Shown here: piece by piece, positions 45,269 through 58,650 of the stretch
Layout of the letters: each line of letters begins with the position of its first letter
Position numbering within the stretch: position 1 is the first letter of the stretch
Source of the DNA: Escherichia phage OliverMaurmann_Bas86
DNA length: 64,000 nt
Sequence record: PQ850622.1
Reading direction: 5' to 3' (one strand)
Position numbers and translations under genes: made by a program
Notes under the pieces: model-generated
What the model was told of the DNA's origin: nothing
Databases searched by the model: none
Seen by the model: only the letters and a program-made list of their open reading frames with translations

Positions 45269-46078
45269 TTATACAATCTGGAGTTTAGAGGAGAATTTAT
45301 CCGCTTCTTTAACATCGTTGCTGTTGATGATGTTATGAAGCTTTTCGATTGGAAGACGAGAGTGAAGTGACATCAACACTTCCATATCACAGCCTTGAAC
45401 AACCTTATCCACTTGCTCATAAACAAACTTGCGGGTTGACTTCTCACCAATCCAGAAGTTAGAAAGAGAACGATATTCAATACCGTAGTCCTTGTAACGA
45501 ATAGCAGAAGCCTTTCCGTACAACTCTTTACGACGAGTGTCTTTATCCATGATTACAGCTGGCAAGGACAGGAAGTAATCACACAGCACACCCAACATCA
45601 TTTGAGTTTGTCGATTGATCTCCAAAGTTCCAGAGACACCGAGGTGCACATGGCCCCCAGCAGTACGCAAACCTTTATCGGTTGCGACTGGTGAAGGGTT
45701 CTTTTGTCCAGTGAAGGCGTTGAAATCAGGAGTACAGCCAAATACAAAAGCTGACGGATGGAATGATTCAAGCTCTTCTGAAGTGAACACATGAGAGCTA
45801 ATCCCAAGCGCTGCTTCCAGACCACGATCATTCAGGATTTTGTTAGTCAGATCAATACCGCGCTGAATATTATCATCAAACGCTTCAAACCCTTTCTGTG
45901 GGTTAATATCAAACTCAGCCAGAACGTTGTCTTCTTGAAGACGAACATCAGGAGCCAGATCAATTTTGTTATCTTTAGAACATCCCAGCTTACCAGCCAC
46001 AGAGGTGATAATACCGGAAGCAGTACGAACAAACATTTCCGGATCCGACCCTATTAAGAATTTACGTTTAGTAGTCAT
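45269..46078 (-). CDS. phiEco32-type COOH-NH2 ligase (GCS-like, type 2)
   Basis: N-terminal FLIGSDPEMFV and the later GGHVHLG fit my recollection of this family. Confidence 0.65.
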   Translation of the reverse strand: MTTKRKFLIGSDPEMFVRTASGIITSVAGKLGCSKDNKIDLAPDVRLQEDNVLAEFDINPQKGFEAFDDNIQRGIDLTNKILNDRGLEAALGISSHVFTSEELESFHPSAFVFGCTPDFNAFTGQKNPSPVATDKGLRTAGGHVHLGVSGTLEINRQTQMMLGVLCDYFLSLPAVIMDKDTRRKELYGKASAIRYKDYGIEYRSLSNFWIGEKSTRKFVYEQVDKVVQGCDMEVLMSLHSRLPIEKLHNIINSNDVKEADKFSSKLQIV

Positions 46079-46545
46079 GCTTTAGTCCAACCTTTATGAG
46101 ATAGATAGTTTTTAAATCTGCCACTGTGCACAGCGCCCATGTGGCCTTGATGTAAGTCGTTGCTTCTACAGAAGTCTCTAAGATTGTATATTGTTACAAC
46201 CTCGCCATCTGGAGATCTAAACTTCCAAAATCTAGCATTCCCTTTCACAGCGTTTTCTTCACTGGTCAGAAGTTGGAAATTACTTGGGTGGTTATTAAGT
46301 TTATCGCCATCGATGTGATCAACAGTCATACCATCCGGAATAGGCCCAATAAACAATTCATACATAAGTCTATGTAATAAAAAGTTCCTTGTTATCTTTT
46401 CAGGAGCCTGAACTGTTGTAAACTTAAGATAACCATCTTTATCAGGAAACAGTTTCCTCTGTTTCCCTGTTCTTGCATGGAATATACTACCGTCTTCGAA
46501 CACCAAGAAGGTAGCAACTCCGACTACTAACTCCCTAAATTCCAT
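46075..46545 (-). CDS. HNH_3 homing endonuclease
   Basis: GYLKF..LHRLMYELFIGPIPDGMTVDHIDGDKLNNHPSNFQL. Inserted inside the amidoligase cluster. Confidence 0.75.
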   Translation of the reverse strand: MEFRELVVGVATFLVFEDGSIFHARTGKQRKLFPDKDGYLKFTTVQAPEKITRNFLLHRLMYELFIGPIPDGMTVDHIDGDKLNNHPSNFQLLTSEENAVKGNARFWKFRSPDGEVVTIYNLRDFCRSNDLHQGHMGAVHSGRFKNYLSHKGWTKA

Positions 46546-46569
46546 AGAGAGCCAATAAGGAAAGCACGC

Positions 46570-47520
46570 TTAGTCATTGTAATACTCCACGAGTTCATCA
46601 AAAAGGGAAACAACACGAGCACCAGCTTCTTCTGGTGTCATTGAGGAAGGTACTGCTTGCATCAGTCGTTCGATAAAACTGCGAACAGTGATTCTGTCCA
46701 TACGCTGATCTAATACTTCTCGCTTGTGACCTGCACAAGTTGACCAGAGACGCAACCACTCACTCATACTTTCATAATGGTCAGGGTCTTGGTCACGACG
46801 GCGTGCCATACGACGGAGAACTCCATCATTATGGTTTCGTACATAACCATCTCGGTTATCATCAACACCGAACACATTCTGAACCCATACGTTTTCAGAA
46901 AATTCATCAGTGGTGCAAATTAGTGGCAGAAATGCAATTGCACTCATGTCACCATCAAAATAAGTCGCTGCTGACTCATCGGTTGAGTCTACGTCATTAC
47001 TATAACACCAGCGACCAAAGAAGTTACGACTTAAACCAGCTAAGCGTAGAGCTAAACCGATTCGTTGTCGCTTAAGCAACTCTTCCTTGTCTTGTACGCC
47101 TTCCTGAAGGAACTCCATTCCATTAAAATCACCATCCAAATAGCTACGGATGGTCATTAGTCCAGTAAACACCTTGTCTGCTGGATGGTTTCGAAGGTTC
47201 ACGGCAATGGAGTTCACCGAAGTGACAGAGAACATATCTTTATAGCAAGACATTGAGTTAAAAATGTCTGTTGCTTCAACTAAAGCTCTTTCGATATCTT
47301 TAGCCGGCACGCCATAAAAATTGTGAGGCCAGAAGTTAATAACTTCAATTTCTGAAGTTCTGTCACGAAGGCTTGTTCGGTTACGACTTTCACCGTTAAT
47401 GTCTGTAACAGAATACATGTGCATACAGTTAAAAGTACCAAAGCAAGCTCTTCCTTTGAACACTGACTCACCGAAATCCTCTGCCGGTGTTACCGGAGCA
47501 ATCGATGCGGAGATTGACAT
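46570..47520 (-). CDS. Hypothetical protein of the amidoligase cluster
   Basis: 316-aa ORF. No motif recognised. Confidence 0.55.
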   Translation of the reverse strand: MSISASIAPVTPAEDFGESVFKGRACFGTFNCMHMYSVTDINGESRNRTSLRDRTSEIEVINFWPHNFYGVPAKDIERALVEATDIFNSMSCYKDMFSVTSVNSIAVNLRNHPADKVFTGLMTIRSYLDGDFNGMEFLQEGVQDKEELLKRQRIGLALRLAGLSRNFFGRWCYSNDVDSTDESAATYFDGDMSAIAFLPLICTTDEFSENVWVQNVFGVDDNRDGYVRNHNDGVLRRMARRRDQDPDHYESMSEWLRLWSTCAGHKREVLDQRMDRITVRSFIERLMQAVPSSMTPEEAGARVVSLFDELVEYYND

Positions 47521-47528
47521 ATTCGCCT

Positions 47529-48746
47529 CTATTTATTAAAGAATAATTTTTCCATAATGGTTTCCCACTCTTCTGAGGGGAGGGTTGAGAACCCGTTTCC
47601 GTGAAGCCTGTTTGTCATGCAACTAATAATATTGTACATGTTGTAGCTTCGGGTGGATTCTGTTCCATTGTTCCAGTTATAACCGAAAACAATTTTATCG
47701 AAGGAGGTTTTATCCGTAGTTACTTCTCGGATGAACTCAACCAAGAGCGATTTCTCTGTGATGACCGCACGTTCACCATCTGGCAGATTACAATACTGAG
47801 GAAGAAGGATTGGTAAGAACATCGAATTGTTCACTCGACAATCGCGCACACCTTCACTGCGATAGATTAGGCTTGAGAAGTCTTCATCACGCAGGTGTCC
47901 TTCACCTTCAGTGTATTCACACTGTCGCCATTTGGTCTGGCGAGGTTCAACCATTGTACTACCAACGCCTACTGTATACAGAGACGCTTGGAAGATACAT
48001 GAATCGTAATCATTCCCTGTTAAAGCAACTTGCTCATTGCCGAACACATCCACTGAAGAGTTGATCAGTCGGCTGAATGCAAGAGAGGCTAAAGGGGACC
48101 AACCTTTCTTATACATCTTGTTCAACATTTCATACACAGCAGATTTTTCATCATCTGTATAGAATGTACGATTCAGCATCAGATAGAACAGAGCGCGATC
48201 AGCAGGACAACCATCAGTACAAACACCCATGAATCCTACTTCATGCCATACCAGACATGAGTCAGAATCCTTATCCATGAATGCTTCAAAGGCTTCCATT
48301 ACAGCCCTGTCAGTAACATCAGGACGGTTGTTTTCTTCTGCCCATGTTTCTACATGAGAAGGAGGACGAGGGTCTCCATTCTCCACCCCTTCGCGGAAAT
48401 ATTGAGTGGTAATAGGCTTTTTATCACCATAACGTTTTACACCATAAGCGGGAAGGTGTGTACCAGAGTTCCAGATGTACTTAATTTCGGACATAGGCAT
48501 CATGTTTTCAAGAACGTTCTCTTCAGCAGTGCCTTGACGAACCATCATATTTTCACTCCACACCTTAATGCGGATATTCCAGCCGTAGTTGCTGTCATAC
48601 GTGTTATAATAATCAGGATCACCATCTTCATCTTCATCATAATCACCACCCTGATAGTAACCTGCTTTCAGGAAACCATAACAAGGAGGCCAGATGGTTA
48701 CAACATCATCTGATTCTTTCCAGCTTTGAAGTGTTACAGGGAACAT
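47529..48746 (-). CDS. Hypothetical protein of the amidoligase cluster
   Basis: 405-aa ORF. Acidic D/E/Y-rich insert near the N-terminus. Confidence 0.55.
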   Translation of the reverse strand: MFPVTLQSWKESDDVVTIWPPCYGFLKAGYYQGGDYDEDEDGDPDYYNTYDSNYGWNIRIKVWSENMMVRQGTAEENVLENMMPMSEIKYIWNSGTHLPAYGVKRYGDKKPITTQYFREGVENGDPRPPSHVETWAEENNRPDVTDRAVMEAFEAFMDKDSDSCLVWHEVGFMGVCTDGCPADRALFYLMLNRTFYTDDEKSAVYEMLNKMYKKGWSPLASLAFSRLINSSVDVFGNEQVALTGNDYDSCIFQASLYTVGVGSTMVEPRQTKWRQCEYTEGEGHLRDEDFSSLIYRSEGVRDCRVNNSMFLPILLPQYCNLPDGERAVITEKSLLVEFIREVTTDKTSFDKIVFGYNWNNGTESTRSYNMYNIISCMTNRLHGNGFSTLPSEEWETIMEKLFFNK

Positions 48747-48757
48747 CTTTTACCTCT

Positions 48758-49120
48758 TTACTCTGCTACCAAAAGGCTCAGAGATTTGCGAATGTAGTCA
48801 ATACTACGGAAGTTTCGATAGTTCTCTTGGAAGCGCATTTTTTCAAACTCTGCTTCCTGAAGCTCTACCTCTGCTGCTTTATATCCTGATAAAGCTAAAC
48901 TTACCACATCCTGAGGTAAGGTATTACGACGGCGAATAAGATATTTATTCGCTTTTAGTTTACCTTGTGCACGAGCCATTTTGGCCTTTGCCGCCTTGAT
49001 ACCATGAGAAATCCAAAGCAGTTGCTGTTTCAGATCTTCCTCATCCATACCACCTAAATCATTTGCTACTTTATGAAGCGTAGACAGGTTCACATGGCCT
49101 TTAATGGGGCGTAGGTTCAT
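48758..49120 (-). CDS. Hypothetical helical protein
   Basis: 120-aa ORF. Confidence 0.5.
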   Translation of the reverse strand: MNLRPIKGHVNLSTLHKVANDLGGMDEEDLKQQLLWISHGIKAAKAKMARAQGKLKANKYLIRRRNTLPQDVVSLALSGYKAAEVELQEAEFEKMRFQENYRNFRSIDYIRKSLSLLVAE

Positions 49121-49284
49121 AACTTCTCCTGTTTGTCACATTGATTGGTTAGCCAGTTGTAAGACCCTCTGTTATTCTTGCTTAACTCGCAAGATGCAAA
49201 AGAGTACATCCTGACAAACCCCACAGTGGCTAAGCAAATAAAGATTGCTGCCAATAAGAATTTAGCTTTCAACTTATTATCCAT
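49117..49284 (-). CDS. Small membrane-anchored protein (55 aa, below track cutoff)
   Basis: MDNKLKAKFLLAAIFICLATVGFV.. RBS agagg. The TGA overlaps the next ATG. Confidence 0.45.
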   Translation of the reverse strand: MDNKLKAKFLLAAIFICLATVGFVRMYSFASCELSKNNRGSYNWLTNQCDKQEKL

Positions 49285-49304
49285 ACAACCTCTTCTTTGA
49301 ACTT

Positions 49305-49329
49305 AAAAAAGGACTCTCATAAGAGAGCC
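49305..49329 (-). terminator. Rho-independent terminator
   Basis: Minus strand reads GGCTCTC-ttat-GAGAGTCC followed by TTTTTT. Confidence 0.8.
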
Positions 49330-49392
49330 AAGCTTTAAGGCCAATTAAATAGATATCACCCAATATCTGTGGATAACCTGCTCTTAAAATAT

Positions 49393-49525
49393 TCTATCCG
49401 ACGGATGTTCGAGGATTATTCCTCTCCCTAGCATCGGCCCCATACGGGAAAGATTAAATTAAGATTAGGTTAGTTGAGCCAGAATAGCTCACATAGCCCT
49501 CTGATACTCACGAGGGCTATAGATG
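49393..49525 (-). repeat. Conserved structured non-coding element, copy 1
   Basis: Aligns with 53929-54055. Contains stop-proximal hairpin ATAGCCCTC/GAGGGCTAT (49493-49520) and inner hairpin GAGGA-ttat-TCCTC (49411-24). Confidence 0.6.
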
Positions 49526-49777
49526 TTACTCTGTATCTCCGTCGAAGCGGAGGATTGCTGTCGGAACAGGAATAACTGCCATGTCAATCTCTAAACGGAA
49601 GAGATGACCTGTGCTCAACTGAACTGCTGTTACCGGCTTAGCGATACCAGCAACAGAGGCAGAAGGGATTCGGATAAAGAATTCCCCCGGATATTCAACC
49701 GAACGAAACACATCTCCCGGTGTCATATCTTTTACTTGAACAGTAGGCTCAGGAGGTGTTTTATTGGAAATTTGCAT
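49526..49777 (-). CDS. Small protein, PGDxF paralog family member 1
   Basis: ..DMTPGDVFR..L.TGHLFRL..VIPVP. Confidence 0.55.
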   Translation of the reverse strand: MQISNKTPPEPTVQVKDMTPGDVFRSVEYPGEFFIRIPSASVAGIAKPVTAVQLSTGHLFRLEIDMAVIPVPTAILRFDGDTE

Positions 49778-50010
49778 TACAAACCTTTCTTAGCACGATC
49801 TTTGGCAGTCTTGCCAGTGCGAATACGGTGGGAAACATTAACCAGTTCGCCGCCTTCGACGATGGTTACGCTTTTATTTTTCGCAATATCGAATACAGTC
49901 TTCTCTGTACCGCCCAGACGAATCTGTTTAGGTTCGCTGTGGGTCTGAGTTGATTTAGACTGGAACTGGAACGGCTGACGGATGGCATCAATTGCGCTAA
50001 CTTTAGACAT
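49777..50010 (-). CDS. Small basic hypothetical protein
   Basis: 77-aa ORF whose stop overlaps the next start. Confidence 0.5.
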   Translation of the reverse strand: MSKVSAIDAIRQPFQFQSKSTQTHSEPKQIRLGGTEKTVFDIAKNKSVTIVEGGELVNVSHRIRTGKTAKDRAKKGL

Positions 50011-50037
50011 GCTTTATTACCTTACATTAAAGAGAGA

Positions 50038-50451
50038 TTAAACAACAAATTGGAACGCTTCGTATCCAAACTTGTATGAGAAGTCATGCTTGAATTTCAC
50101 TACACGACCACGATCACGGAAAGATTTCAGACGACTAATAAAGCCAGCCATCGGCTCAGGGTCAATAGGGCTACGAATCTTCATAGCTACAGAGTGCAGC
50201 TTGAAGCGTTTACCAGTGCTACAGGCCATCATCACATACTCCATACGAGTAGTCCAGATGTTGAGCACCATGCTTGTTTTCTCCGCTGACCAACCAGTCT
50301 TGCGGGCGATTTCTTTATGGACATTAAGCTCCAAAGGAAGAGGGAATTGCTTGTTGAATGAAGCCGGATATAGCTTGACCAGAAGGTCAATGTTTTCTTT
50401 ATACGTTAAGTAAGCCAATTTCTTGCTTACGTTAGGGAATTTCCCAGACAT
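50038..50451 (-). CDS. ProQ/FinO-domain RNA-binding protein candidate
   Basis: LYPASFNKQFPLPLELNVHKEI..SAEKTSMVLNIWTTRMEYV..GKRFKLHS parallels E. coli ProQ FPHCF..RPLKIGIFQDL..LRSALRLYTSSWRYL..GATRVDLDG. Confidence 0.65.
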   Translation of the reverse strand: MSGKFPNVSKKLAYLTYKENIDLLVKLYPASFNKQFPLPLELNVHKEIARKTGWSAEKTSMVLNIWTTRMEYVMMACSTGKRFKLHSVAMKIRSPIDPEPMAGFISRLKSFRDRGRVVKFKHDFSYKFGYEAFQFVV

Positions 50452-50629
50452 TTTTTGAAGCTCCAAAACAGCGCCGAAAAGAGAGGCGTCATAGTAGCTA
50501 AAGGGAGGAGAGAAGAGGGCTTATTTACTTGCCTTTTTCTGTCCGTTAATGTACCAGAGAACTGAGCCATCAGGCTGTCGCTGACCGAAGCCTTTCAGGT
50601 TAACCATTTCTTCTTCAGAGTAGGCACGT

Positions 50630-50893
50630 TTATTCACTGATCTTCTCCACTAAATCCAGAGTTGCCGATTCAAACACAACACCAACTGGCATACTAGGTG
50701 CCATATTACGAACGTATCCACTCTGCATAGACACGGCTCGAGAGTATTCAGAACCGTTAGAGCTTTTGTTTACCTTCATGTAAAGGGTTTGTTCTTTATC
50801 TTCTTTCAGAGTAAAGAAAGAGCCGGGAAGAAGCCCCTGAACAGTCAGAGGGATATCTGCAACATGAGTCTTATTGATAGTAAGAACTGTCAT
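50630..50893 (-). CDS. Small protein, PGDxF paralog family member 2 (divergent)
   Basis: ..GLLPGSFFTL..LYMKV.. Confidence 0.5.
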   Translation of the reverse strand: MTVLTINKTHVADIPLTVQGLLPGSFFTLKEDKEQTLYMKVNKSSNGSEYSRAVSMQSGYVRNMAPSMPVGVVFESATLDLVEKISE

Positions 50894-50896
50894 TGC

Positions 50897-51151
50897 TTAT
50901 TCCTTAATAGTTGCTTCAGCTTTAATAGGAATAACAGCAACATCTTTACGAGGTGCTGTCGCTCGGCCCGTATTAAGACAGGCTACAAGTCTGTGCTCAT
51001 CCGCACCCTTAATACAGAGTCGAGTAGAGAACTCGGTAGACAATAAGATGTACAAATCATCATCTTCACTATTAGGGAACATGAAGCAATCCCCGAGTCG
51101 TAAAGCACTGAGAGGTATTGCATTCTTACCTGCTGGTTTGTTAACTTTCAT
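50897..51151 (-). CDS. Small protein, PGDxF paralog family member 3
   Basis: ..LRLGDCFMF..LYILL..VAVIPI. Confidence 0.5.
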   Translation of the reverse strand: MKVNKPAGKNAIPLSALRLGDCFMFPNSEDDDLYILLSTEFSTRLCIKGADEHRLVACLNTGRATAPRKDVAVIPIKAEATIKE

Positions 51152-51427
51152 TTAACCACCTTTAGTTATGGACCGATTTATGAGAGAACTCTTGGAAGAA
51201 TGCTTTCATAAATAGGGGGAGGGGACGAATCCTCCCATATCCTATTAATTAATATTGCATGTAAGATCTAACAATTCGATGCTGTAGTGGATAGCGTAAA
51301 ACGCTTACCGGCATTAAACCCAGCCCATGAGGGGCTTATGTGAATAAAATGCTCAACATTGAGCGGTTAGTTGATAGGAGATCTGAAGTCCTATCTCAAA
51401 GGACTCTCGTAAGAATCCTTCACGATA

Positions 51428-51694
51428 TTACTTAGTAACAAAGACTGTCACCTTATCCATTACCCAGCCTATCAACATAAGTAAAGGTAAGAAGAGGATA
51501 AAGATCAGCATAAAAGGCCAGAAGAATATCACCGTCCAAATAGAGTATTCATCAGGCTTACCACTCCACGAGGAATGGAAGAAGTTGTAGAGTGTATTGG
51601 TTTTGAAGCACCACTTAACTACAATGGCTGCCAACCACCAACCAATAACATAAATCAGGAGGACATACGCTGCTGTAACCATTGACCGTTCCAT
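51428..51694 (-). CDS. Integral membrane protein (3 TMD)
   Basis: Hydrophobic stretches AAYVLLIYVIGWWLAAIVV and IWTVIFFWPFMLIFILFLPLLMLIGWV. Confidence 0.55.
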   Translation of the reverse strand: MERSMVTAAYVLLIYVIGWWLAAIVVKWCFKTNTLYNFFHSSWSGKPDEYSIWTVIFFWPFMLIFILFLPLLMLIGWVMDKVTVFVTK

Positions 51695-51909
51695 TGATAG
51701 TTGCGAGTGACCACGTTTCCGTGGATAAGAAAGTGCTGTCGACGAAGGGTATCTTTAACGTTGTAATAGGCAGCGTTTCCAAGATGGCCTTCTTTGATAA
51801 GCCAACGCAGGTTGCGAATACCAACTAACAACATAAGTACTTGTTGCTTGTATGAAGTTTGAGCTGCTGTTTCAAGTAGAGCTTTCGTATCAGAATAATG
51901 ACCGGACAT
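51655..51909 (-). CDS. Hypothetical protein
   Basis: 84-aa ORF. Confidence 0.45.
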   Translation of the reverse strand: MSGHYSDTKALLETAAQTSYKQQVLMLLVGIRNLRWLIKEGHLGNAAYYNVKDTLRRQHFLIHGNVVTRNYQWNGQWLQQRMSS

Positions 51910-51910
51910 A

Positions 51911-52237
51911 TCACCACTCCTTACCTGTTGTTGTCACAGAGCCACCACACAGCTCACCACGGGAGATGAAGTCATAACGTGACCAATCACCTTGGGTAGC
52001 CATATCACGCTTTGCATAAGCCTTCTCGTCAACAGCACCGCCATTGGAACAAGAAGCACCAGCATAATGCATATCAATTTCTCCACTAGGAATCTTCTCT
52101 CCGCTATGCCAACGGGAAACACAGACACCTTCTACAGATAATGCACACCATCCATCAGGACGATGCTGTACGCAGCCTGTAAGAGCTACACAGGCGATAA
52201 AGATACAGGTTAAGGTAATTACACCACCCCAACTCAT
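51911..52237 (-). CDS. Lipoprotein
   Basis: ITLTCIFIACVALTGCVQH contains the lipobox LTGC. Confidence 0.6.
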   Translation of the reverse strand: MSWGGVITLTCIFIACVALTGCVQHRPDGWCALSVEGVCVSRWHSGEKIPSGEIDMHYAGASCSNGGAVDEKAYAKRDMATQGDWSRYDFISRGELCGGSVTTTGKEW

Positions 52238-52374
52238 GATCCCTCCTGAAGCGCCTTACGGCGGCTATCTCGCCAAGCCATCCATAGGTAGGTTTTAAGT
52301 TCTTCTCTTTCTTCTTCTCTGAACAAAGGAGAAGTAAAGATATCATCGAACCACTCATTAAACTCAGGGGTCAT
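52234..52374 (-). CDS. Small acidic protein (46 aa, below track cutoff)
   Basis: Strong RBS aggaggg. MTPEFNEWFDDIFTSPLFREEEREELKTYLWMAWRDSRRKALQEGS. The TGA overlaps the next ATG. Preferred over track ORF 52155..52358. Confidence 0.55.
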   Translation of the reverse strand: MTPEFNEWFDDIFTSPLFREEEREELKTYLWMAWRDSRRKALQEGS

Positions 52375-52392
52375 AAACCCTCCTACGTTGAT

Positions 52393-52470
52393 TGGTGCAC
52401 CCTACAGGATTCGAACCTGTAACCGACGACTTAGAAGGTCGCTACTCTAATCCAATTGAGCTAAGGGTGC
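52393..52470 (-). tRNA. tRNA-Arg (anticodon UCU), CCA encoded
   Basis: Minus strand reads GCACCCTTAGCTCAATTGGATTAGAGTAGCGACCTTCTAAGTCGTCGGTTACAGGTTCGAATCCTGTAGGGTGCACCA. 7-bp acceptor stem GCACCCT/AGGGTGC, anticodon loop CTTCTAA, T-loop GGTTCGAATCC. Confidence 0.9.
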
Positions 52471-52479
52471 TAGATTTAT

Positions 52480-52689
52480 TTAACTAAAGATACGAATGGC
52501 TACATCGTGACCAATATGACCGGGAACTTTATGCTGCTCTATTTTCAGACAGCGCTTACAGATACGAGATACACGAGACTCTTTTCTCTCGACTGGAGTG
52601 TCTTTTGCGTGAGTGATTTGAAGGTTTTCAGTGATCACCCACTCATGTTTACACTCAGAATCTTCGGGCTTTTTCTTACGAAAGAACAT
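52480..52689 (-). CDS. Small zinc-ribbon protein (family with 52698, 52872, 62203)
   Basis: ATG at 52689. ..CKHEW..CKRC.. Confidence 0.5.
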   Translation of the reverse strand: MFFRKKKPEDSECKHEWVITENLQITHAKDTPVERKESRVSRICKRCLKIEQHKVPGHIGHDVAIRIFS

Positions 52690-52697
52690 AACACCTC

Positions 52698-52862
52698 TTA
52701 GATCAGATCTGTTTTCTTGTGCAGACCACACACTTTACAGCGAGAGTAGATACGCAACCCTTGTCGCTCTCTGTCAGTAAGTTTATTTGTGATCGTCAGT
52801 TCATAAGTAGAAAGATCTTCCCACTCATGGAAATGAAATAGACGTTTGAACCATTTGATCAT
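52698..52862 (-). CDS. Small zinc-ribbon protein (54 aa, below track cutoff)
   Basis: MIKWFKRLFHFHEWEDLS..RCKVCGLHKK. RBS aaggaa. Confidence 0.5.
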   Translation of the reverse strand: MIKWFKRLFHFHEWEDLSTYELTITNKLTDRERQGLRIYSRCKVCGLHKKTDLI

Positions 52863-52871
52863 AATGATTCC

Positions 52872-53018
52872 TTAGATTATGTCACGACGACTAACTTCAC
52901 CACACACCTTACACTGGATAACGTAACGTACGCCCCTTGCATCTCCACAGATCAGCGGACGGGTGTCGATAATCTTCCAATCATGACAATGGAAGACACG
53001 CTTTAGCCACTTAATCAT
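52872..53018 (-). CDS. Small zinc-ribbon protein (48 aa, below track cutoff)
   Basis: MIKWLKRVFHCHDWKIID..QCKVCGEVS. Paralog of 52698..52862. Confidence 0.5.
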   Translation of the reverse strand: MIKWLKRVFHCHDWKIIDTRPLICGDARGVRYVIQCKVCGEVSRRDII

Positions 53019-53019
53019 A

Positions 53020-53277
53020 TTAAGCACACGCCGGTAGTTCAATTAACTGAGGAGTACGACAAGGACCGTCTTCATACACACCAACCAACGTTGGCATGTA
53101 AGGCCCAGCGCACTGGTATTCGTCGAACAGTTCATTGTAAGTAGGCTTCCACTTCCAAGCCCACACATAACCCATTCGGTCAATGGCAATGTAACGAGTG
53201 TTCAGAGGAACTTGCATCATTACATCACCAACTGCTATTACTTTCGTAATAACTGCTGCTCGGAAGTTTGTCTTCAT
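53020..53277 (-). CDS. Hypothetical protein
   Basis: 85-aa ORF. Confidence 0.5.
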   Translation of the reverse strand: MKTNFRAAVITKVIAVGDVMMQVPLNTRYIAIDRMGYVWAWKWKPTYNELFDEYQCAGPYMPTLVGVYEDGPCRTPQLIELPACA

Positions 53278-53525
53278 GGTGATTTAATCTCAATCTGAAC
53301 ATTGACAACAAATACAGTATGGTTTGCACTGTACACCGAAGTGCCGATGATTGGCTTATCATCACTGAGGATTTCAACAGCGTGATCGAGGTTGATCTTC
53401 AGATGAAGACGACCTGATTCCATGAAGAAATCACCAGCACGTATCTCACCGAACTTAGCTGGCACACCGATAGAAGGTATCAGTATGTCAGTGCGACCTT
53501 TACGGTCAAATAAACGATTGAACAT
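53274..53525 (-). CDS. Small protein, PGDxF paralog family member 4
   Basis: ATG at 53525 behind gagagg, downstream of terminator 53569-99. ..IRAGDFFM..LHLKI.. Confidence 0.5.
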   Translation of the reverse strand: MFNRLFDRKGRTDILIPSIGVPAKFGEIRAGDFFMESGRLHLKINLDHAVEILSDDKPIIGTSVYSANHTVFVVNVQIEIKSP

Positions 53526-53568
53526 ATCAACCTCTCTTGTTAGTTTAAGTAAGAGTTGTCCCTTAATT

Positions 53569-53599
53569 AAAACAACAAAGGCCACCCCGAAGGGCAGCC
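53569..53599 (-). terminator. Rho-independent terminator
   Basis: Minus strand reads GGCTGCCC-ttcg-GGGTGGCC followed by TTTGTTGTTTT. Confidence 0.7.
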
Positions 53600-53608
53600 C
53601 ATTATTAA

Positions 53609-53749
53609 TTATCCACCGTAGAACCAATCACCTTGACGCTTACGGATGTTAGTTGTCAGACGAAGCATGGCAGACTCAATCTTCAGAGCACCATTTGCTA
53701 CTGCATCCATACGTTCAGGACGGTTCATACGTTTGGTTGTCTTCTTCAT
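53609..53749 (-). CDS. Small basic protein (46 aa from ATG 53749)
   Basis: MKKTTKRMNRPERMD.. The upstream part of track ORF 53609..53884 overlaps a hairpin-rich non-coding stretch. Confidence 0.4.
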   Translation of the reverse strand: MKKTTKRMNRPERMDAVANGALKIESAMLRLTTNIRKRQGDWFYGG

Positions 53750-53788
53750 ATCGTTCTCTCTTTGTTGGTGGAGGCAGGTTTGCCAGTT

Positions 53789-53822
53789 AATATAAAGGGA
53801 AGCCCTACACGTTAAGGCTTCC
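53789..53822 (-). terminator. Terminator-like hairpin
   Basis: Minus strand reads GGAAGCC-N11-GGCTTCC followed by CTTTATATT. Confidence 0.45.
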
Positions 53823-53928
53823 GCTTGTACAAACTGTCGAGAACTCTCTACCCCTAGATTGTTCTCTATCCCAAACCGATACATACCCCTACATATCGGA
53901 AAGCTGTTCGAAAATTAACAGGTTTTAG

Positions 53929-54055
53929 TCTATCACCGGATGTTTGAGACAAGTCTCGCCCTAGCGGTGAGCCATATGGCGTTGAGATTATAGTTAATTG
54001 AGGAACACCCTCACATAGCCCTCTGATAGACACAAGGGCTATAAGTCGATGTTAC
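53929..54055 (-). repeat. Conserved structured non-coding element, copy 2
   Basis: Aligns with 49393-49525. Stop-proximal hairpin at 54015-54042. The inner hairpin is GAGAC-aa-GTCTC (53946-57), a compensatory change relative to copy 1. Confidence 0.6.
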
Positions 54056-54286
54056 TTAACCATTGATATGAGTTACTTGAACATCAGGTACAGGGATAAC
54101 TTCATGGTCTTCCTGTAATTGGAACAGTGTCCCCTGACTAAGACCAACCACACGATGCATATCGTTAAGTCTAGTGTCTGTCTTTAGGTAGACATTTTCA
54201 GAGTTAGTTGGTAAACGGAACACATCGCCCGGACGTAACTCACTGAGCTTTTTAGTAACAACTACAGAGAAGAGATTAATTTTCAT
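54056..54286 (-). CDS. Small protein, PGDxF paralog family member 5
   Basis: ..LRPGDVFRL..VYLKT..GTLFQL..VIPVP. Confidence 0.55.
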   Translation of the reverse strand: MKINLFSVVVTKKLSELRPGDVFRLPTNSENVYLKTDTRLNDMHRVVGLSQGTLFQLQEDHEVIPVPDVQVTHING

Positions 54287-54474
54287 TTGATTAACACCAA
54301 ATCAGTACGACGTTCGAAGGAAGGGGAGGATTCACCATTCCACTGAACAAGATAACAGAGAACACCATCAATCGTTGTTCTCCGACGAATAACACCTGTA
54401 ACAGTTCCACCAACAAGGCGAACGGTGTCGCCAACGGTAAATTTAACCTTTGAGCGCATCTCCTGTTTCCTCAT
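54283..54474 (-). CDS. Small SH3/KOW-like protein (start uncertain)
   Basis: ..KFTVGDTVRLVGGTVTGVIRRR..YLVQWNGE. The long track ORF to 54612 overlaps the upstream gene. Confidence 0.4.
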   Translation of the reverse strand: MRKQEMRSKVKFTVGDTVRLVGGTVTGVIRRRTTIDGVLCYLVQWNGESSPSFERRTDLVLIK

Positions 54475-54748
54475 TCTGGCGTTTAATTTCTTCAGTGAGT
54501 TGCTTATTAAGATCTTGAATACGCTTAATCTCCCAACCCAAAGAAGCCAAACGATCGTTACGTGCTTCGATTTGTTCCTGCATTTTAAGTAATTTGGAAC
54601 GAACATCAGCATTAAAAACTTCTTCTTGCTTAAGAAGGAACTCGTAACGACGCTTCCAGCTTGCTGATTTATTTCTTAAAACAATAAACCCTAGAGTAGA
54701 AACCGTTACAGTGAGTACGAAAAGGAACTTATAAACCTCTAAAGACAT
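54443..54748 (-). CDS. Membrane-anchored coiled-coil protein
   Basis: N-terminal TMD FLFVLTVTVSTLGFIVL followed by a charged helix. Confidence 0.55.
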   Translation of the reverse strand: MSLEVYKFLFVLTVTVSTLGFIVLRNKSASWKRRYEFLLKQEEVFNADVRSKLLKMQEQIEARNDRLASLGWEIKRIQDLNKQLTEEIKRQNEETGDALKG

Positions 54749-54949
54749 ATCTTTATCCTCTTAAAGTAAGATATTATAAGAAATATTATTTAGAATTTAT
54801 TATTTCTAAACTTAATTTCTATCAATAATTTTCAGAGGTCTATATACAGTCATTACCTCTGGTCCCAAATCACTTCCACTTTTTACAGAGAAAATCATAA
54901 GTGTGTGATTTATAAGGAAATTTAGTTTGTCAATATTGGCACCTATGAA

Positions 54950-55336
54950 TCAGTCACGGGAGCTATTATTGAACACTAAATCACCACAATACATCGGATT
55001 GGTATACCACTTTGGCACCCCTTCGCTCTTACTCTGAAAGTATGTACCGCTGTACAAAGGCACATAATCTTTCTTCAGTGCACGTCTTGCAAGCCGCTCG
55101 CTCTCTCTGATTGATCTCTTTATCAGAGAGTTATCATCACGAATTAGCTTTACATAACGCTTAAAAGGTTTCTCCTTCTTTAATAGGACGGGTATCCACT
55201 CGAACTGGTTTCGTTGATTTATAACCTGCTCGGCAGTCAGTTTTCGTTGTGACATTCTGTTTATTACGGTATCCGCTACTAATGCTTTGCAAGCGGTTGG
55301 CTGATTCCCTGCCTCATAATAAATAGTCAATGTCAA
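54950..55336 (-). CDS. SleB-type cell wall hydrolase (Hydrolase_2) homolog
   Basis: IYYEAGNQP..ALVADTVINRM..VINQRNQFEW matches E-A..AV..V-x-NR..V-x-x-x-x-QF. TTG start; the upstream frame is open to 55363. Confidence 0.65.
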   Translation of the reverse strand: MTLTIYYEAGNQPTACKALVADTVINRMSQRKLTAEQVINQRNQFEWIPVLLKKEKPFKRYVKLIRDDNSLIKRSIRESERLARRALKKDYVPLYSGTYFQSKSEGVPKWYTNPMYCGDLVFNNSSRD

Positions 55337-55389
55337 AAGTAGCTGGGCTGTCGTTATCAGAACTTACTACCCCCTTGTTTTACGGGCAT

Positions 55390-55415
55390 AAAAAAGCCCC
55401 ATCCGAAGACGGGGC
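55390..55415 (-). terminator. Rho-independent terminator (third of three)
   Basis: Minus strand reads GCCCCGTC-ttcg-GATGGGGC followed by TTTTTTAT. Confidence 0.85.
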
Positions 55416-55470
55416 GACCTGAAAGAGTGAACATGACCTCACTCATTTAAGAATCCTCGAAAAGACTCTT

Positions 55471-55494
55471 AAAAAAGCGGCCTCGTTAAAGGCC
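55471..55494 (-). terminator. Rho-independent terminator (second of three)
   Basis: Minus strand reads GGCCT-ttaacg-AGGCC-gc followed by TTTTTT. Confidence 0.65.
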
Positions 55495-55574
55495 CGGTCA
55501 AATGACCATCCAATAGGGGTTGAACCATGCCAATGATTCACAAAGGGAGTTCCCTTTAGGTATCACTAGCTACG

Positions 55575-55596
55575 CAAAAAGCCGCACAAAGGCGGC
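55575..55596 (-). terminator. Rho-independent terminator (first of three)
   Basis: Minus strand reads GCCGC-ctttgt-GCGGC followed by TTTTTG. Confidence 0.65.
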
Positions 55597-55655
55597 AGAC
55601 ACAAAGACGCTCAAGAAGAGCGTCATAGTAGTTGACTACTGGTACAGAAGAGGGC

Positions 55656-56099
55656 TTACTTAACTCTTGCTGTTTTGAGTGGGTCAATATATTTTTCAAC
55701 TCCCCACTTATGCTTACTATCAGCGTAGAAAACATCTGGTGCACATTGGCTAGTAGTAGGAAATGCTTTCGGTGGCTTAGTGCTACCTTTATTCTTCTGC
55801 TTACCTTTAGTGCGACCGTTACAAAAGATTTCTAAACGTTTTTCTTGTTCTGTTTTTGCTGCACCGTTGGTTAACAGAGAACGCTTGTGATCAGCAAGAA
55901 GAAGAGCATCAGCACGATGAACACGACGACCTAACACCTTCGCTACGGTAGAAGGTTTATGTTCTTGAGCGGCTTGTTTGATAGCTCTTCGTTTAAGGCT
56001 ACGTTTGCTAATATGGTTAACAGCGGCTGGCTTTTCTTTTTCCAGCTCACTCATAGAGAACACTCGTCCGCCTTTCATGCTGATTTTAGATTTAGCCAT
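55656..56099 (-). CDS. Basic hypothetical protein
   Basis: 147-aa K/R-rich ORF. A TATAAT hexamer at 56128-56133 (minus) lies upstream. Confidence 0.55.
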   Translation of the reverse strand: MAKSKISMKGGRVFSMSELEKEKPAAVNHISKRSLKRRAIKQAAQEHKPSTVAKVLGRRVHRADALLLADHKRSLLTNGAAKTEQEKRLEIFCNGRTKGKQKNKGSTKPPKAFPTTSQCAPDVFYADSKHKWGVEKYIDPLKTARVK

Positions 56100-56169
56100 T
56101 TCTTTATTCCTTTCGCTGATAAATTATATCGTGCAAGCCTTACCACATAGCAAGGCTTAACCAAATAAC

Positions 56170-56379
56170 TTAATCAATTAAACTAAACGATTTCCAACTA
56201 CGTGTAATTGCTACCTTTTCGCCATCAAAGAGAACACTTACAGAGATCAGTTTACCGCGACAACTGGATACCGTGGTAATACGTCCGGTTAATGCCTTAC
56301 CTTTATTCAGGTAGTGATAGCGGACACGACGTCCTAACAAACGAGTAGCTTTCTTCTCTAACGTGCTTAAGCTGGTCAT
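56170..56379 (-). CDS. Small hypothetical protein
   Basis: 69-aa ORF whose start overlaps the upstream stop. Confidence 0.5.
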   Translation of the reverse strand: MTSLSTLEKKATRLLGRRVRYHYLNKGKALTGRITTVSSCRGKLISVSVLFDGEKVAITRSWKSFSLID

Positions 56380-56600
56380 TAAATAGCCCCTTTATATTGG
56401 AGTGATCTTACACGACGATACATAACAGTTGATGCACTAATCGCCGCTTGTTTTCTTTCGTGCTCATGCTGATTCTTTCGAATCTTATCCATCTCGGCAT
56501 CATTACGACGACGTTGTAAGATTCTGCTACATTTGCGATGGTTATTATTAGCACGTGCTTTCTTACAGATAGGGCACAAATGGGATTGAGTTAAGATCAT
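56379..56600 (-). CDS. Small basic Cys-containing protein
   Basis: HLCPICKK..HRKC, then R/K-rich. Confidence 0.5.
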   Translation of the reverse strand: MILTQSHLCPICKKARANNNHRKCSRILQRRRNDAEMDKIRKNQHEHERKQAAISASTVMYRRVRSLQYKGAI

Positions 56601-56830
56601 TTGCGTAACCCCAGCTTACGAAGGAATCGGCCTAACTTAGTTTCTTGCGTGATAGTGTAAGTAACAGAGTTATCAATCAAGGCTTGTTCTTGAATCGGCG
56701 ACGGATACCATTCACCGGTAAGAATGCATTTGCATTCGATTCCATATCTATCGGTTTTACGATAGGTCATATTGTTTAAGATATTACGATACATCTTAAC
56801 TTCTGTTTTCAATTTTGGCATGGTGATCAT
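56597..56830 (-). CDS. Small hypothetical protein
   Basis: 77-aa ORF, coupled. Confidence 0.5.
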   Translation of the reverse strand: MITMPKLKTEVKMYRNILNNMTYRKTDRYGIECKCILTGEWYPSPIQEQALIDNSVTYTITQETKLGRFLRKLGLRK

Positions 56831-56875
56831 CTCTTTTTAGTTTCTTTGATTAGCACACTGAATCAATGCACTAGT

Positions 56876-56908
56876 AAAAGAAAAGGCGCTACCCTTTCGA
56901 ATAGCGCC
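56876..56908 (-). terminator. Rho-independent terminator
   Basis: Minus strand reads GGCGCTA-N10-TAGCGCC followed by TTTTCTTTT. Confidence 0.8.
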
Positions 56909-56927
56909 CCATGTGTTTTATTGTTGG

Positions 56928-57830
56928 TTATGCTGCCAGTTGGCGTGCCGCCATAATCTCGGCAGCTTTGCGTAACACTTCCTCTTCTTCCTGCGCAGCT
57001 TTCTCATTAGCTTTGACAGTTGAAGCGTTTGAGATACGACCGCGAAGGTTAGACAATTTTTCAGTCATTTCATTGATCACCTTTTCCATTTCATCGGCGT
57101 ACGAGTCCAGAGATTCAAGCTCTTTAGTTGAGGCATTAATCAGGTAGTCATCGCTGATAGAAACAGTTGAAGCGGTTACTTTCTTAAGGAGTGAATCGAA
57201 AGTTTTCTTAACTTTGCCTACTTCTTCACTCAATGCGATAGTATTGTCAGAAGATGCGCCGTTGCGTTCATCTGCCAGTAGTGCCGCTTCAATACGGATT
57301 GCAGCCAGACGGTCAACCAGTGCATAAATATCCTGATTAAAGTTTTCGTTAACCTTCTGGTTGATCTGGTTTGCTACCGGAACATTGTCGTTGCAACCTT
57401 TGTAGAATGCTGGGTTATCAACCTGCACGTCTTCACCTTTAGCAAAGCGTTCAAAGGAATTAGACCAGCGGGCGCGGTTTTGTTCCATTTTGGCCTTAAC
57501 TTGTTCCGGTTTAGCATCCTCTTTCGCTTTCGCTTCACCTTCCAGATTAATCCATTTCTTTTTACCGTTCGCCCCGTCGCTGTTGTACTTGATCGGGGTT
57601 AAGAAAGAGATGGCAACCGCAATCACGTCTAAGTCACGATAACGCTCAGTTAACAAGAAATCAACCGCCGCCTGCAATACATCCAGTTTCTTACCGTTGG
57701 TGCGGAAGTGCTGCAAATGGCCTAACAGGAAGTTAGAAACATCTTGTTTGATTGCCGCGTTGTTGCTACGAATGTTGTTAGCCAGTGCATTAAAGCCGGA
57801 TTCGTTAACCAGATTAAAAACTTTAGCCAT
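56928..57830 (-). CDS. Helical early protein of unknown function (300 aa)
   Basis: ATG at 57830 behind ggtga (the track start at 57839 is GTG). First long gene after the promoter/boxA array. Confidence 0.6.
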   Translation of the reverse strand: MAKVFNLVNESGFNALANNIRSNNAAIKQDVSNFLLGHLQHFRTNGKKLDVLQAAVDFLLTERYRDLDVIAVAISFLTPIKYNSDGANGKKKWINLEGEAKAKEDAKPEQVKAKMEQNRARWSNSFERFAKGEDVQVDNPAFYKGCNDNVPVANQINQKVNENFNQDIYALVDRLAAIRIEAALLADERNGASSDNTIALSEEVGKVKKTFDSLLKKVTASTVSISDDYLINASTKELESLDSYADEMEKVINEMTEKLSNLRGRISNASTVKANEKAAQEEEEVLRKAAEIMAARQLAA

Positions 57831-57898
57831 GATATTCACCTTTCAATTGTAAGGGCACTATGCCCCCGCTCTCTATGAGCTTTTTAAGTCACTATTGA

Positions 57899-57938
57899 CT
57901 TATCAATAATCACTCAATATCAAGTAATTATTGATAAG
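57899..57938. repeat. Perfect 12-bp inverted repeat with 16-nt spacer
   Basis: CTTATCAATAAT (57899-910) and ATTATTGATAAG (57927-938), 70-110 nt upstream of ATG 57830. Confidence 0.8.
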
Positions 57939-58650
57939 CGAGGCGGTCTTATCAGGAGTTAACCTTGCCGCCTCCTTATCCGTGATGTTTCATCTGGTAT
58001 CTTTAATTAGTCGCTATAAATAAAGCCGACCTGATAGCGATGATCAATCATCACAATAAGGCAGTGCGTCCGACTCTATTTAATTACTTTATCGTAACCG
58101 TCGGCAATATCGTCTACTTTGCTTTCGCTCCCGCCTATCCTTTTGTACTAACTCTCAATCGCTAACCATCGCCCACTACGGGAGGTTATTGCGAAAGAGT
58201 CATTAGCCGTCTAATGCATTGACGTTTTATATCTTTCAGCAGGTTTACTACATAAACTGATTATGTACGCCATCAATAGTGGCCTCAAATCATTCACATC
58301 GTAAACGTTCACACTAAACCTTATTGTTAAATAGCAATTTGCCACTTTTTAACCATTCACCGCCGCCCCCAATTGGGCGTTAATTCGTCGGATTTGCCTA
58401 CCCTGATAAACTTCTTTCACTGTAGCACCTTGTTAGCGATGGCCGCCGCTACCCTTTAACCGTGGGCGATTAGTTTAGGCCGTTGCGTGTACTCAATGAA
58501 TCCGTTTTATCAGTGGTGACGTTTCCAGTTAAGGGATTGTAAAAACTGTTTACCCTGATAATTTAGGGAGTCTTACGCCGTTTTATCTGGTATGTTTTCC
58601 GATGGTTATTATCATCCAACATATTCAACCGATATAGGAGAATGTTTAAA

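Follow-up and report, generated by a model that had tools for sequence, protein, structure and literature searches.

Comparative analysis indicates that a phiEco32-like phage and its relatives carry a previously undescribed, strongly conserved folded RNA element, a candidate for the terminator read-through switch that these phages are thought to need. The window, meaning the whole stretch of 64,000 nucleotides that was analysed, derives from a phiEco32-like coliphage (Gordonclarkvirinae), with E. coli or Salmonella as the host. The element measures 125-137 nt, lies on the minus (sense) strand and occurs in exactly two copies in the window, at 49393-49529 and 53929-54055, which share 75% column identity in the alignment. 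That these are two related copies, as the first-pass annotation proposed, was borne out: all of the shared blocks it listed are present, and two covariance models matched copies 1 and 2 at 131.8 and 118.4 bits (model one) and at 109.2 and 106.9 bits (model two). A pattern derived from the core had 0 matches in 100 shuffles of the window. No third copy was found in the window, where the next covariance match reached only 19 bits with filters off. The partial third occurrence claimed at 59042-59051 is an exact 10-mer at chance level that neither model scores; about 10 other copy 2 10-mers, at eight other places, recur elsewhere in the window. Rfam 15, run on the whole window at the gathering threshold, returned only a tRNA-Arg, leaving the element without a family, and nothing in region 49200-54300 overlapped either copy at E <= 10. 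A literature search found no paper describing the element and no RNA-seq for these phages. Genome collections yielded two matches, one on a probable phage contig and one on a contig with a kuravirus-type copy-1 sequence.

The fold comprises five helices, in which the 5' hairpins P1 and P2 precede a 3' domain consisting of P3 beside a rod of P4, a 7x7 internal loop and P5. Each copy begins at the stop codon of its upstream gene. The copy 1 locus is organized as follows:

49526-49777, minus strand: PGDxF-family gene upstream of copy 1, 83 aa; the stop codon falls within motif GUAACAUC
49393-49529, minus strand: copy 1 core RNA, 137 nt (covariance model, pair counts)
49522-49529, minus strand: motif GUAACAUC, holding the upstream stop codon
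49493-49520, minus strand: P1 hairpin
49476-49490, minus strand: P2 hairpin
49449-49475, minus strand: linker, G-free
49439-49448, minus strand: P3 hairpin, CCC-GUAU-GGG
49398-49437, minus strand: P4, 7x7 internal loop and P5, then the tail AUAGA
49367-49385, minus strand: post-core box AAGAGCAGGUUAUCCACAG (MFE fold, duplex z-scores)
49368-49376, minus strand: TTATCCACA, a perfect DnaA-box consensus inside the post-core box
49302-49338, minus strand: P6 intrinsic terminator with A-tract, 7-bp stem GGCUCUC/GAGAGUC and U6 (terminator scan)
49329-49312, minus strand: stem of this terminator, then U6
49284, minus strand: start of the next gene after the terminator

Covariation strongly supports an RNA structure under selection, as the first-pass annotation had inferred. 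The same five helices are kept in some 45 distinct sequences, which represent at least seven lineages. In the most diverse set, 97.1% of cells were paired, compared with 32-44% when partners were slid, and 17 of 26 pairs showed changes on both sides; the observed covariation score was reached by none of 500 shuffles. Between the two copies, the reported double change GAGGA/UCCUC versus GAGAC/GUCUC is real and compensatory, and three helices that the first-pass annotation had not mentioned, P2, P3 and P4, show further compensatory changes. G-U pairs appear only when the minus strand is read, which is the sense strand. The 9-bp hairpin described past the stop codon is present in both copies; the spacing of 4-9 nt given for it does not hold for copy 2, where the hairpin lies 13 nt from the true stop and 9 nt only from an out-of-frame UAA.

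The internal loop has the sequence CUAGGGN/NAACAUC, with 13 of its 14 positions invariant in 43 distinct sequences, while the remaining opposed pair covaries non-canonically (A:G 26, C:A 15, A:A 2). It is purine-rich, with likely G:A and A:A pairs, and the P3 loop is conserved as RUAU. Such a rod, amounting to about 18 base-pair equivalents, could serve as a T7-type RNase III site, or the AU-rich linker as an RNase E site, in an RNA processing or stability module, an idea already put forward in the first-pass annotation. The early polycistronic RNA would then be cut at gene borders, leaving protective 3' hairpins, or cleavage would free a small RNA of about 215 nt that derives from the 3'UTR, is stable and has the terminator at its end. 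We consider this rather unlikely. The location at gene borders right after stop codons fits it, as does the conservation of copy 1 and its terminator as one block between phage families, and an irregular hairpin with an internal loop resembles the early RNase III sites of T7, which are likewise repeated, related hairpins at gene borders in early RNA. However, RNase III has little sequence specificity, which does not account for the 13 loop bases that never vary, for the non-canonical pair that covaries or for the three other helices conserved across families; the element differs from T7-type sites in its stricter sequence invariance, its extra helices and a linked protein gene, a linkage that processing does not explain either.

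The length of about 130 nt given earlier is correct for the core only, since the conserved unit continues for another 90-180 nt or so to a conserved hairpin. In the MFE fold, the 5' part of the post-core box pairs with the linker (UAACCU:AGGUUA, UCUUAA:UUAAGA), forming a long-range helix that encloses P3-P5. Duplex z-scores were -3.2 to -3.8 in the copy-1 type and phage 7-11, and contigs L054, L061 and L062 keep the duplex with different complementary sequences. A P6 hairpin follows every copy, with a conserved stem base (GGCU...AGUCC) and a stem top that covaries across lineages. The terminator reported after copy 1 is present, with its stem at 49329-49312 and U6, and P6 is a canonical terminator with U6 in the copy-1 type and in 7-11; the U-tract is interrupted at P6 of the new lineages and at hairpin D of copy 2. 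The label terminator is thus secure only for the copy-1 type, because P6 has no clean U-tract in the new lineages or copy 2.

The post-core box touches on two further explanations. The 9-mer TTATCCACA occurs once in the window and stands unchanged amid variable flanks in all 22 of the 22 distinct copy-1-type sequences, which come from two families. This could point to a DNA-level element, for example a replication origin or a DnaA-dependent roadblock at the DnaA box beside copy 1. Such a reading is very improbable: the compensatory changes, together with G-U pairs on one strand, are a signature of RNA, the box is absent from copy 2 and all new lineages, its first bases are accounted for by the long-range helix, and GC skew has no inflection near 49 kb. 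It is also quite improbable that the element is a riboswitch-like attenuator, whose helix-closed junction domain would bind a small molecule and decide termination at P6. The architecture would suit such a device, since a helix closes the domain, the invariant loop could form a pocket and a terminator precedes the next gene, and the box sequence UAAGAG can pair with CUCUUA of the P6 5' arm over 6 bp in the window's copy 1. Nevertheless, by direct reading of the sequences, only 4-5 bp of this alternative are left in phiEco32 and 7-11, so it does not appear to be conserved; the controlled genes share no metabolic theme, and the element is confined to phages and matches no Rfam family.

Copy 2 retains the same core, followed by a different extension and a small gene:

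54056-54286, minus strand: PGDxF-family gene upstream of copy 2, 76 aa, predicted SH3-like five-strand barrel
53929-54055, minus strand: copy 2 core RNA, 127 nt (covariance model)
54048-54055, minus strand: motif GUAACAUC
54015-54042, minus strand: P1
54000-54012, minus strand: P2
53971-53980, minus strand: P3
53933-53970, minus strand: P4, internal loop and P5
53773-53928, minus strand: extension, then ribosome-binding site (alignment of 17 distinct kuravirus sequences, covarying stems)
53904-53921, minus strand: extension hairpin A
53876-53899 and 53839-53866, minus strand: two hairpins sharing the identical octaloop UAGGGGUA
53798-53822, minus strand: hairpin D, then CUUUAUAUU
53773-53784, minus strand: hairpin GGCA...UGCC, then CCUCC
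53609-53749, minus strand: 46-aa basic protein gene, MKKTTKRMNRPERMDAVANGALKIESAMLRLTTNIRKRQGDWFYGG, phi32_112 family, phrog_13305 (translation, PHROG match)
53569-53600, minus strand: strong intrinsic terminator directly after the small-protein gene (terminator scan)

The hairpin reported after copy 2 corresponds to 53798-53822. The extension has four UAGGG motifs within 160 nt, compared with 33 on the same strand in 64 kb. The upstream genes of the two copies are true paralogs (33% identity, E = 6e-8), and the PGDxF protein is predicted to form a five-strand beta barrel of the SH3-like, KOW or Tudor small-barrel type. Each copy had been described as lying directly after a PGDxF-family gene, and this link is frequent, holding for both copies in the window, but not universal: in phiEco32 and SU10 the genes ahead of copy 1 are unrelated to this family, and on contig L043 an unrelated ORF precedes the element. 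Framing the element as the 3'UTR of a PGDxF gene therefore appears weaker. It seems to be a leader or regulatory module for what lies downstream more than the tail of an upstream gene, because the downstream partner is more regular: a hairpin or terminator is conserved there, and five lineages also have the gene of a tiny basic protein.

The encoded small protein is 46 aa long, rich in arginine and lysine, with a KRMNRPERMD motif and a conserved proline in the basic segment. PHROGs 13305 and 35232 are annotated as unknown function, and a Pfam scan of five family members gave no hit above the curated cut-off and none to an N family. The gene lies downstream of copy 2 in all kuraviruses examined. 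Distant homologs were retrieved by profile search with the protein alone, and their contigs (L052-L057 and L061-L063, representing four further lineages) all contain the RNA core, at 68-85 bits and 110-400 nt upstream of the homolog, bringing the lineages with RNA upstream of the small gene to five. In phage 7-11 both RNA and protein are present, with the protein gene not adjacent but about 12 kb away and promoter-proximal to the RNA and terminator. The early half of GAP52 yielded neither the RNA nor the protein motif, and L043 has no small-protein homolog within the 8 kb examined. Comparison of phage families gives about 77% identity for the RNA but only about 31-34% for the flanking membrane protein, suggesting a conserved, probably host, partner.

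Adjacency of RNA and small gene does not discriminate between modes of control, because it is equally expected for a mere translational operator. The RNA might accordingly act as a translational or feedback operator of the small-protein gene, or as the scaffold of an RNA-protein particle, leaving polymerase processivity unaffected; the hairpin between RNA and gene would do no more than adjust how much protein is made per RNA, as it does in type III toxin-antitoxin loci. This explanation is unlikely, although it draws on the placement of the RNA directly upstream of the gene in five lineages, on the missing P6 U-tract in most lineages linked to the small gene, and on RNAalifold pairing of the region just 5' of hairpin B (the second hairpin of the extension) with that around the gene's ribosome-binding site. 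Against it, copy-1-type elements and the sole 7-11-like copy precede a strong terminator and unrelated genes rather than the small gene, and an operator of a single gene would need no second, equally conserved copy elsewhere. The ToxIN arrangement is similar in that a structured RNA is followed by a terminator-like hairpin and the gene of a likely RNA-binding protein, whereas the present element has no tandem RNA repeats and its protein is far below the size of a ToxN-like nuclease; PADLOC and Pfam gave no evidence for a ToxIN type at the small-protein locus.

The transcription context bears on what lies behind the copy 1 terminator. In kuraviruses a membrane-protein gene lies behind the copy-1-type terminator, and in 7-11 the terminator is followed by an endolysin gene. 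On the minus strand, no sigma70-like site was found from 49329 to 46000 and no gp36-type (tAATGTAtA) site from 49329 to 44660, so the genes behind the copy 1 terminator of the window seem to depend on read-through. Strong sigma70-like promoters lie at 59103 and 58779, at least 4.7 kb upstream with terminators between, and those nearer to the element are annotator-predicted only. The early strand has 34 terminator-like sites versus 12.4 expected. Transcription from the early promoters has to pass three or four good terminators (56910, 55624/55596, 55415) before it reaches copy 2, so copy 2 cannot explain read-through at these sites. In 7-11, early transcription spans about half the genome, and an antitermination strategy "that remains to be defined" was judged "highly likely" (Lavysh et al. 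2022, PMC8948821).

That expectation would also be satisfied, in principle, by a factor-independent processive antiterminator, in which the nascent RNA alone makes host polymerase terminator-resistant. HK022 put RNA acts in this way, in cis and without a phage protein, via the beta' zinc-binding domain. Like putL and putR, the element occurs as two related structured copies with bulged, non-canonical helices in early coliphage transcripts, running in one early direction ahead of terminators, and its high sequence conservation fits a host-polymerase partner. Such a mechanism is nonetheless improbable. HK022 put comprises about 70 nt and two stem-loops and requires no protein (PMC9378689), whereas the element is twice that size, with 125-137 nt plus extensions and five covarying helices plus the long-range helix and P6. 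It does not appear to be promoter-proximal, and constitutive action would leave the conserved terminator right behind it purposeless. Nor does the model account for the genomic tie to the small protein, a further difference from put.

The explanation we favour, tentatively and short of an even chance, is a cis-acting leader RNA that is bound by the small protein and controls read-through of adjacent terminators, in the manner of lambda N and nut. The element would be transcribed within the phage's leftward early mRNAs and would fold once the ribosome leaves the upstream stop codon, with the long-range helix closing the 3' domain in several lineages. The invariant loop domain would then provide the docking site for the co-conserved 46-aa basic protein, which suits the protein-binding option among those the first-pass annotation had listed. 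Arginine-rich peptides classically dock on purine-rich internal loops, as in Rev-RRE. The likeness to HIV Rev-RRE IIB and BIV Tat-TAR, namely a purine-rich internal loop between two short helices and a short peptide that is very basic, goes no further than the mode of recognition, with no sequence relation, and the small protein is a putative binder. The fold of the RNA, its strand and conservation, its placement with respect to stop codons and terminators, and its genomic linkage to the small protein are observed here; that the protein binds, that RNA polymerase is the target and that read-through increases are inferred. In this model the RNA-protein complex would act on transcribing host RNA polymerase, enabling it to read through P6 and later terminators. 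Through copy 2, the counterpart of nutL ahead of N, the protein would regulate the gene that encodes it, and copy 1 would gate the genes behind terminator 49329-49302. Several observations weigh against the model: the good terminators ahead of copy 2, the roughly 12 kb between RNA and protein gene in 7-11, the lack of a Pfam match and of a boxA/boxB-like module, the proline in the basic segment, the imperfect U-tracts outside the copy-1 type, and L043, where the protein was not found.

The gene order is of the nut type, with copy 2 followed by the small gene (53749-53609) and copy 1 by the terminator (49329-49302). In lambda, too, a small basic protein gene lies directly downstream of one RNA copy (N after nutL), a second copy precedes a terminator gating later genes, and the RNA belongs to the early transcript. 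The systems differ in that the element has about 130 nt and five helices instead of the 15-nt nut hairpin, no module of boxA plus boxB hairpin (GNRA-like pentaloop) was found in the aligned element, the protein has 46 aa, no Pfam family and a proline in its basic segment, and copy 2 does not appear to be promoter-proximal; the antitermination role of the element is a proposal.

It is possible, though doubtful, that antitermination in phiEco32-like phages, 7-11-like phages and several of their uncultured relatives relies on the same pair of components. If so, a nascent RNA of about 130 nt and a 46-aa protein would make host RNA polymerase pass the intrinsic terminators that partition the early region, and neither lambda N/nut nor HK022 put would be related to this system by sequence.

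Both copies of the RNA element are read on the minus strand of the OliverMaurmann_Bas86 window and begin with GUAACAUC, their start coinciding with the upstream ORF's stop codon. All the sequence blocks listed as common to two aligned copies by the first-pass annotation are present in both on this strand, and a pattern derived from the core gave 0 matches in 100 shuffles of the window. Two covariance models, R1 (built from 19 sequences) and R2 (built from the most diverse set), each recovered exactly two copies in the window, the next-best match with filters off reaching 19 bits.

49393-49529, minus strand, copy 1 of the element
53929-54055, minus strand, copy 2 of the element

A weak R2 match at 51353-51431 (minus strand; 19.3 bits, rough E ~0.05) probably reflects nothing more than a hairpin close to a terminator-like site. 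The partial third occurrence previously suggested at 59042 is a chance 10-mer, one of several from copy 2 that recur in the window. A sigma70-like promoter (59103-59076) lies ~25 nt upstream of it, and the site receives no score from either covariance model. Homologs were drawn from ~100 phage records, from IMG/VR, metagenomes and genome bins, and from contigs reached via the neighbouring protein, the complete viral and metagenome collections being scanned by exact pattern only. The IMG/VR pattern scan returned known phages only, plus one chance match. The Aeromonas APT65 locus was negative for the RNA, as was GAP52, whose early half yielded neither the RNA nor the protein motif described below.

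Order of the core element, 5' to 3'
5' motif, upstream stop codon included
P1, 9 bp
P2, 4-7 bp, fourth pair U-A, C-G or G-C
Linker, G-free
P3, 3 bp, loop RUAU
P4, 6-7 bp
7x7 internal loop, CUAGGGN opposite NAACAUC
P5, 4-5 bp

In 43 distinct sequences, pairing holds in 96.3% of cells and both sides change at 16 of the 26 pairs; in the 22 most diverse sequences the values are 97.1% and 17 of 26. When partners were slid in these 22 sequences as a control, pairing fell to 32-44%, and none of 500 shuffles reached the observed covariation score. The covariation first noticed in one inner hairpin between the two copies is real, and four helices in all carry compensatory changes. Since G-U pairs appear solely when the minus strand is read, the folded molecule is the sense RNA. 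Within the internal loop, 13 of 14 bases are invariant and the remaining opposed pair covaries (A:G in 26 sequences, C:A in 15, A:A in 2). Read antiparallel, the loop gives C:C, U:U, A:A, G-C, G:A, G:A and A:G or C:A, and therefore probably forms a continuous non-canonical helix. In the divergent contig L043, P1 and P2 are wholly different in sequence yet still form hairpins, and P3-P5 and the loop are retained. Pseudoknots between loop and linker and a UCCACA:J1/2 pairing were rejected on inspection, their complementarity being weak or inconsistent between lineages.

The conserved unit is longer than the ~130 nt initially assigned to it, with a purine box and then a hairpin, P6, lying 3' of the core. 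The purine box (UAAGAG...AGGUU) directly follows the core and is complementary to the linker in copy-1-type sequences, in 7-11 and in three new lineages, with sequences that vary by lineage (UAACCU:AGGUUA, CAAACUA:UAGUUUG and AAACAC:GUGUU; duplex z ~-1.5 to -3.8); the duplex test was not significant in copy 2, L055 (a related phage contig) and L043. P6 has a conserved base (AAAG-GGCU...AGUCC-UU) and a covarying top (CUC/GAG, GCUUC/GAGGC, ACCU/AGGU, CC/GG and GCUUG/CAAGC). P6 takes the form of a textbook terminator, complete with A-tract and U6, in copy 1 of kuraviruses and in the only copy of Salmonella phages 7-11, SE131, SeKF_80 and pSal-SNUABM-01; elsewhere its U-tract is interrupted. The closed junction and terminator layout would suit a riboswitch, a very unlikely reading given the lack of a conserved alternative pairing. 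Two related copies in early RNA could also represent a factor-independent antiterminator resembling put. However, size and architecture differ from put, and an antiterminator acting constitutively would leave the strong terminator conserved immediately after it without a purpose, making this quite unlikely.

In kuravirus copy 2, an insertion between the core and P6 forms two hairpins that share an identical loop and have stems covarying among kuraviruses.

53876-53899, minus strand, hairpin with octaloop UAGGGGUA
53839-53866, minus strand, hairpin with octaloop UAGGGGUA

Together with CUAGGG of the core and a further hairpin, D, these place four UAGGG motifs within 160 nt. An SD-like or CsrA-like reading of the octaloops was set aside on inspection, as the complementarities were weak or lineage-inconsistent. 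Read against the respective consensus sequences, the element holds no gp36-type and no 7-11 late promoter match. One DNA motif lies between copy 1 and its terminator.

49368-49376, minus strand, perfect DnaA-box consensus TTATCCACA

This 9-mer occurs once in the window and is identical in 22/22 distinct copy-1-type sequences (kuraviruses and Salmonella 7-11-like phages). It is the sole hint of a DNA-level role, which is extremely unlikely: neither copy 2 nor the newly found lineages have the box, a long-range RNA helix also takes in its first bases, and GC skew lends no support. A replication origin was likewise rejected, with no GC-skew inflection near 49 kb and the box missing in most lineages.

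A selected RNA structure, as expected by the first-pass annotation, is upheld by the double-sided changes and shuffles reported here. A constant association with PGDxF genes was rejected: unrelated genes precede the L043 copy as well as copy 1 in both phiEco32 and SU10. The PGDxF family itself comprises a broad set of PHROGs with function unknown. Several small [KP]GD-x-[VF]-type proteins in L043 (1978-4396), a contig binned as a Flavobacterium MAG yet phage-like, share a C-terminal motif ...EENE. A processing or stability site, or a 3'UTR-derived small RNA, would match the position at a gene border, but would leave the strict loop invariance and the protein linkage unexplained, and appears unlikely.

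The downstream neighbour is more regular than the upstream one. Copy 2 is followed by a small gene with a strong terminator directly after it.

53609-53749, minus strand, gene for a 46-aa basic protein

The protein, which belongs to no recognised family, has a net charge of ~+7 and a conserved N-terminal motif, K-R-M-N-R-P-E-R-M-D-A-x-x-N-G; its residues 1-25 read MKKTTKRMNRPERMDAVANGALKIE. A profile search recovered distant homologs with 48-59% identity over part of the length. Contigs picked solely because of this protein match show the RNA core at 110-400 nt upstream of the small gene in a further four lineages (L052-54, L055-57, L061 and L062-63); a fifth homolog family (P0017; L058-L060, 7-11-like), whose contigs include very little sequence on the upstream side, gave no RNA match. 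Both the anatomy of the element and its genomic linkage to the protein are matters of observation. In 7-11, the small protein gene is ~12 kb promoter-proximal to the single RNA copy. An RNA serving the same protein as a translational operator, or as part of an RNA-protein particle, with no control of polymerase, would account for the adjacency to the small gene but not for copy 1, and is unlikely.

Uncultured relatives with both the RNA and the small protein also encode proteins with ProQ/FinO domains, which are RNA chaperones (L052 19454-19894; L053 10741-11181; L055 17080-17517; L056 10005-10442; L058 6664-7392), and there TerB and KilA-N genes adjoin the small gene. In 7-11 (contig L045), a 700-nt unannotated gap after the small basic protein gene (L045 2640-3350; 7-11 genome ~82130-82840) contains ends of T-arm-like and CCA-like type. 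Rfam gives it a match to permuted tmRNA below threshold (29.6 bits against a gathering score of 47), and ARAGORN found nothing in it.

The window matches phiEco32-like coliphages (subfamily Gordonclarkvirinae), most closely the records of Bas87 (95.8% identity) and SU7. Negative GC skew between ~17.5 kb and 61 kb agrees with minus-strand transcription, and at 46-61 kb the examined ORFs lie on that strand; this stretch corresponds to the early leftward region as described for phiEco32, SU10 and 7-11. The terminator scan found 34 intrinsic-terminator-like sites on the minus strand of 46000-64000 vs 12.4 expected. The strong ones split the early region into many short units.

56910, minus strand, strong intrinsic-terminator-like site
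55624/55596, minus strand, strong intrinsic-terminator-like site
55415, minus strand, strong intrinsic-terminator-like site
53600, minus strand, strong intrinsic-terminator-like site
49329, minus strand, strong intrinsic-terminator-like site

Behind the copy 1 terminator, the minus strand showed no sigma70-like promoter as far as 46000 and none of gp36 type as far as 44660. A 1.3-kb stretch at 57852-59166, free of ORFs of at least 50 aa, is the spacer of the early promoters, with a long untranslated leader after it, and carries the best sigma70-like promoters of the promoter scan on this strand.

59103-59076, minus strand, sigma70-like promoter
58779-58751, minus strand, sigma70-like promoter

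Early transcription of 7-11 starts at two right-end promoters and must reach the sigma gene; an antitermination strategy was considered 'highly likely' but undefined (Lavysh et al., PMC8948821).

Tentatively, and as a possibility well short of an even chance, the RNA and the 46-aa protein may act on RNA polymerase by the logic of lambda N/nut. The nascent RNA would fold just ahead of terminators, and the basic protein, its gene tied to the RNA, would act as the partner of the RNA in read-through; protein binding, an effect on polymerase and the sign of that effect are what we infer. This logic is the best fit because the RNA folds before terminators, is conserved across families, has an invariant purine-rich loop and is linked to a tiny basic protein. 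The RNA is strongly conserved between families whose flanking proteins are ~31-34% identical. Against the N/nut model, copy 2 has terminators upstream of it, RNA and protein gene are apart in 7-11, the protein lacks a recognised family, and clean U-tracts are missing outside the copy-1 type. A lysis-cassette gate like lambda PR'-tR' was considered because endolysin follows the element in 7-11, and was rejected, as kuraviruses have other genes there and their lysis genes elsewhere.

Rfam 15 contains no matching family, including ribozymes, riboswitches and tRNA-like RNAs, and the literature searched yielded neither a description of the element nor RNA-seq for kuraviruses. At the element, annotation in the SU7 and 4E8 records is limited to generic promoters and terminators, and several phage genomes carry predicted 'hypothetical protein' ORFs over it. 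We rate the element as a new RNA family within a known general class, that of cis-regulatory leader or antitermination RNAs in phages; its putative protein partner is unusual and very small. Structured RNAs that reprogram bacterial RNA polymerase are rare and have been highly instructive, the main examples being nut, put and EAR, and this phage group is one whose transcription programme has been studied biochemically. Even if the N/nut model fails, the element would still be a new, well-defined RNA family worth annotating in >100 phage genomes. If the model is true, it would add a new minimal switch, made of an RNA and a peptide and working on E. coli RNA polymerase, of use in mechanism studies and synthetic biology, and would explain gene timing in kuraviruses, which are under development for phage therapy.
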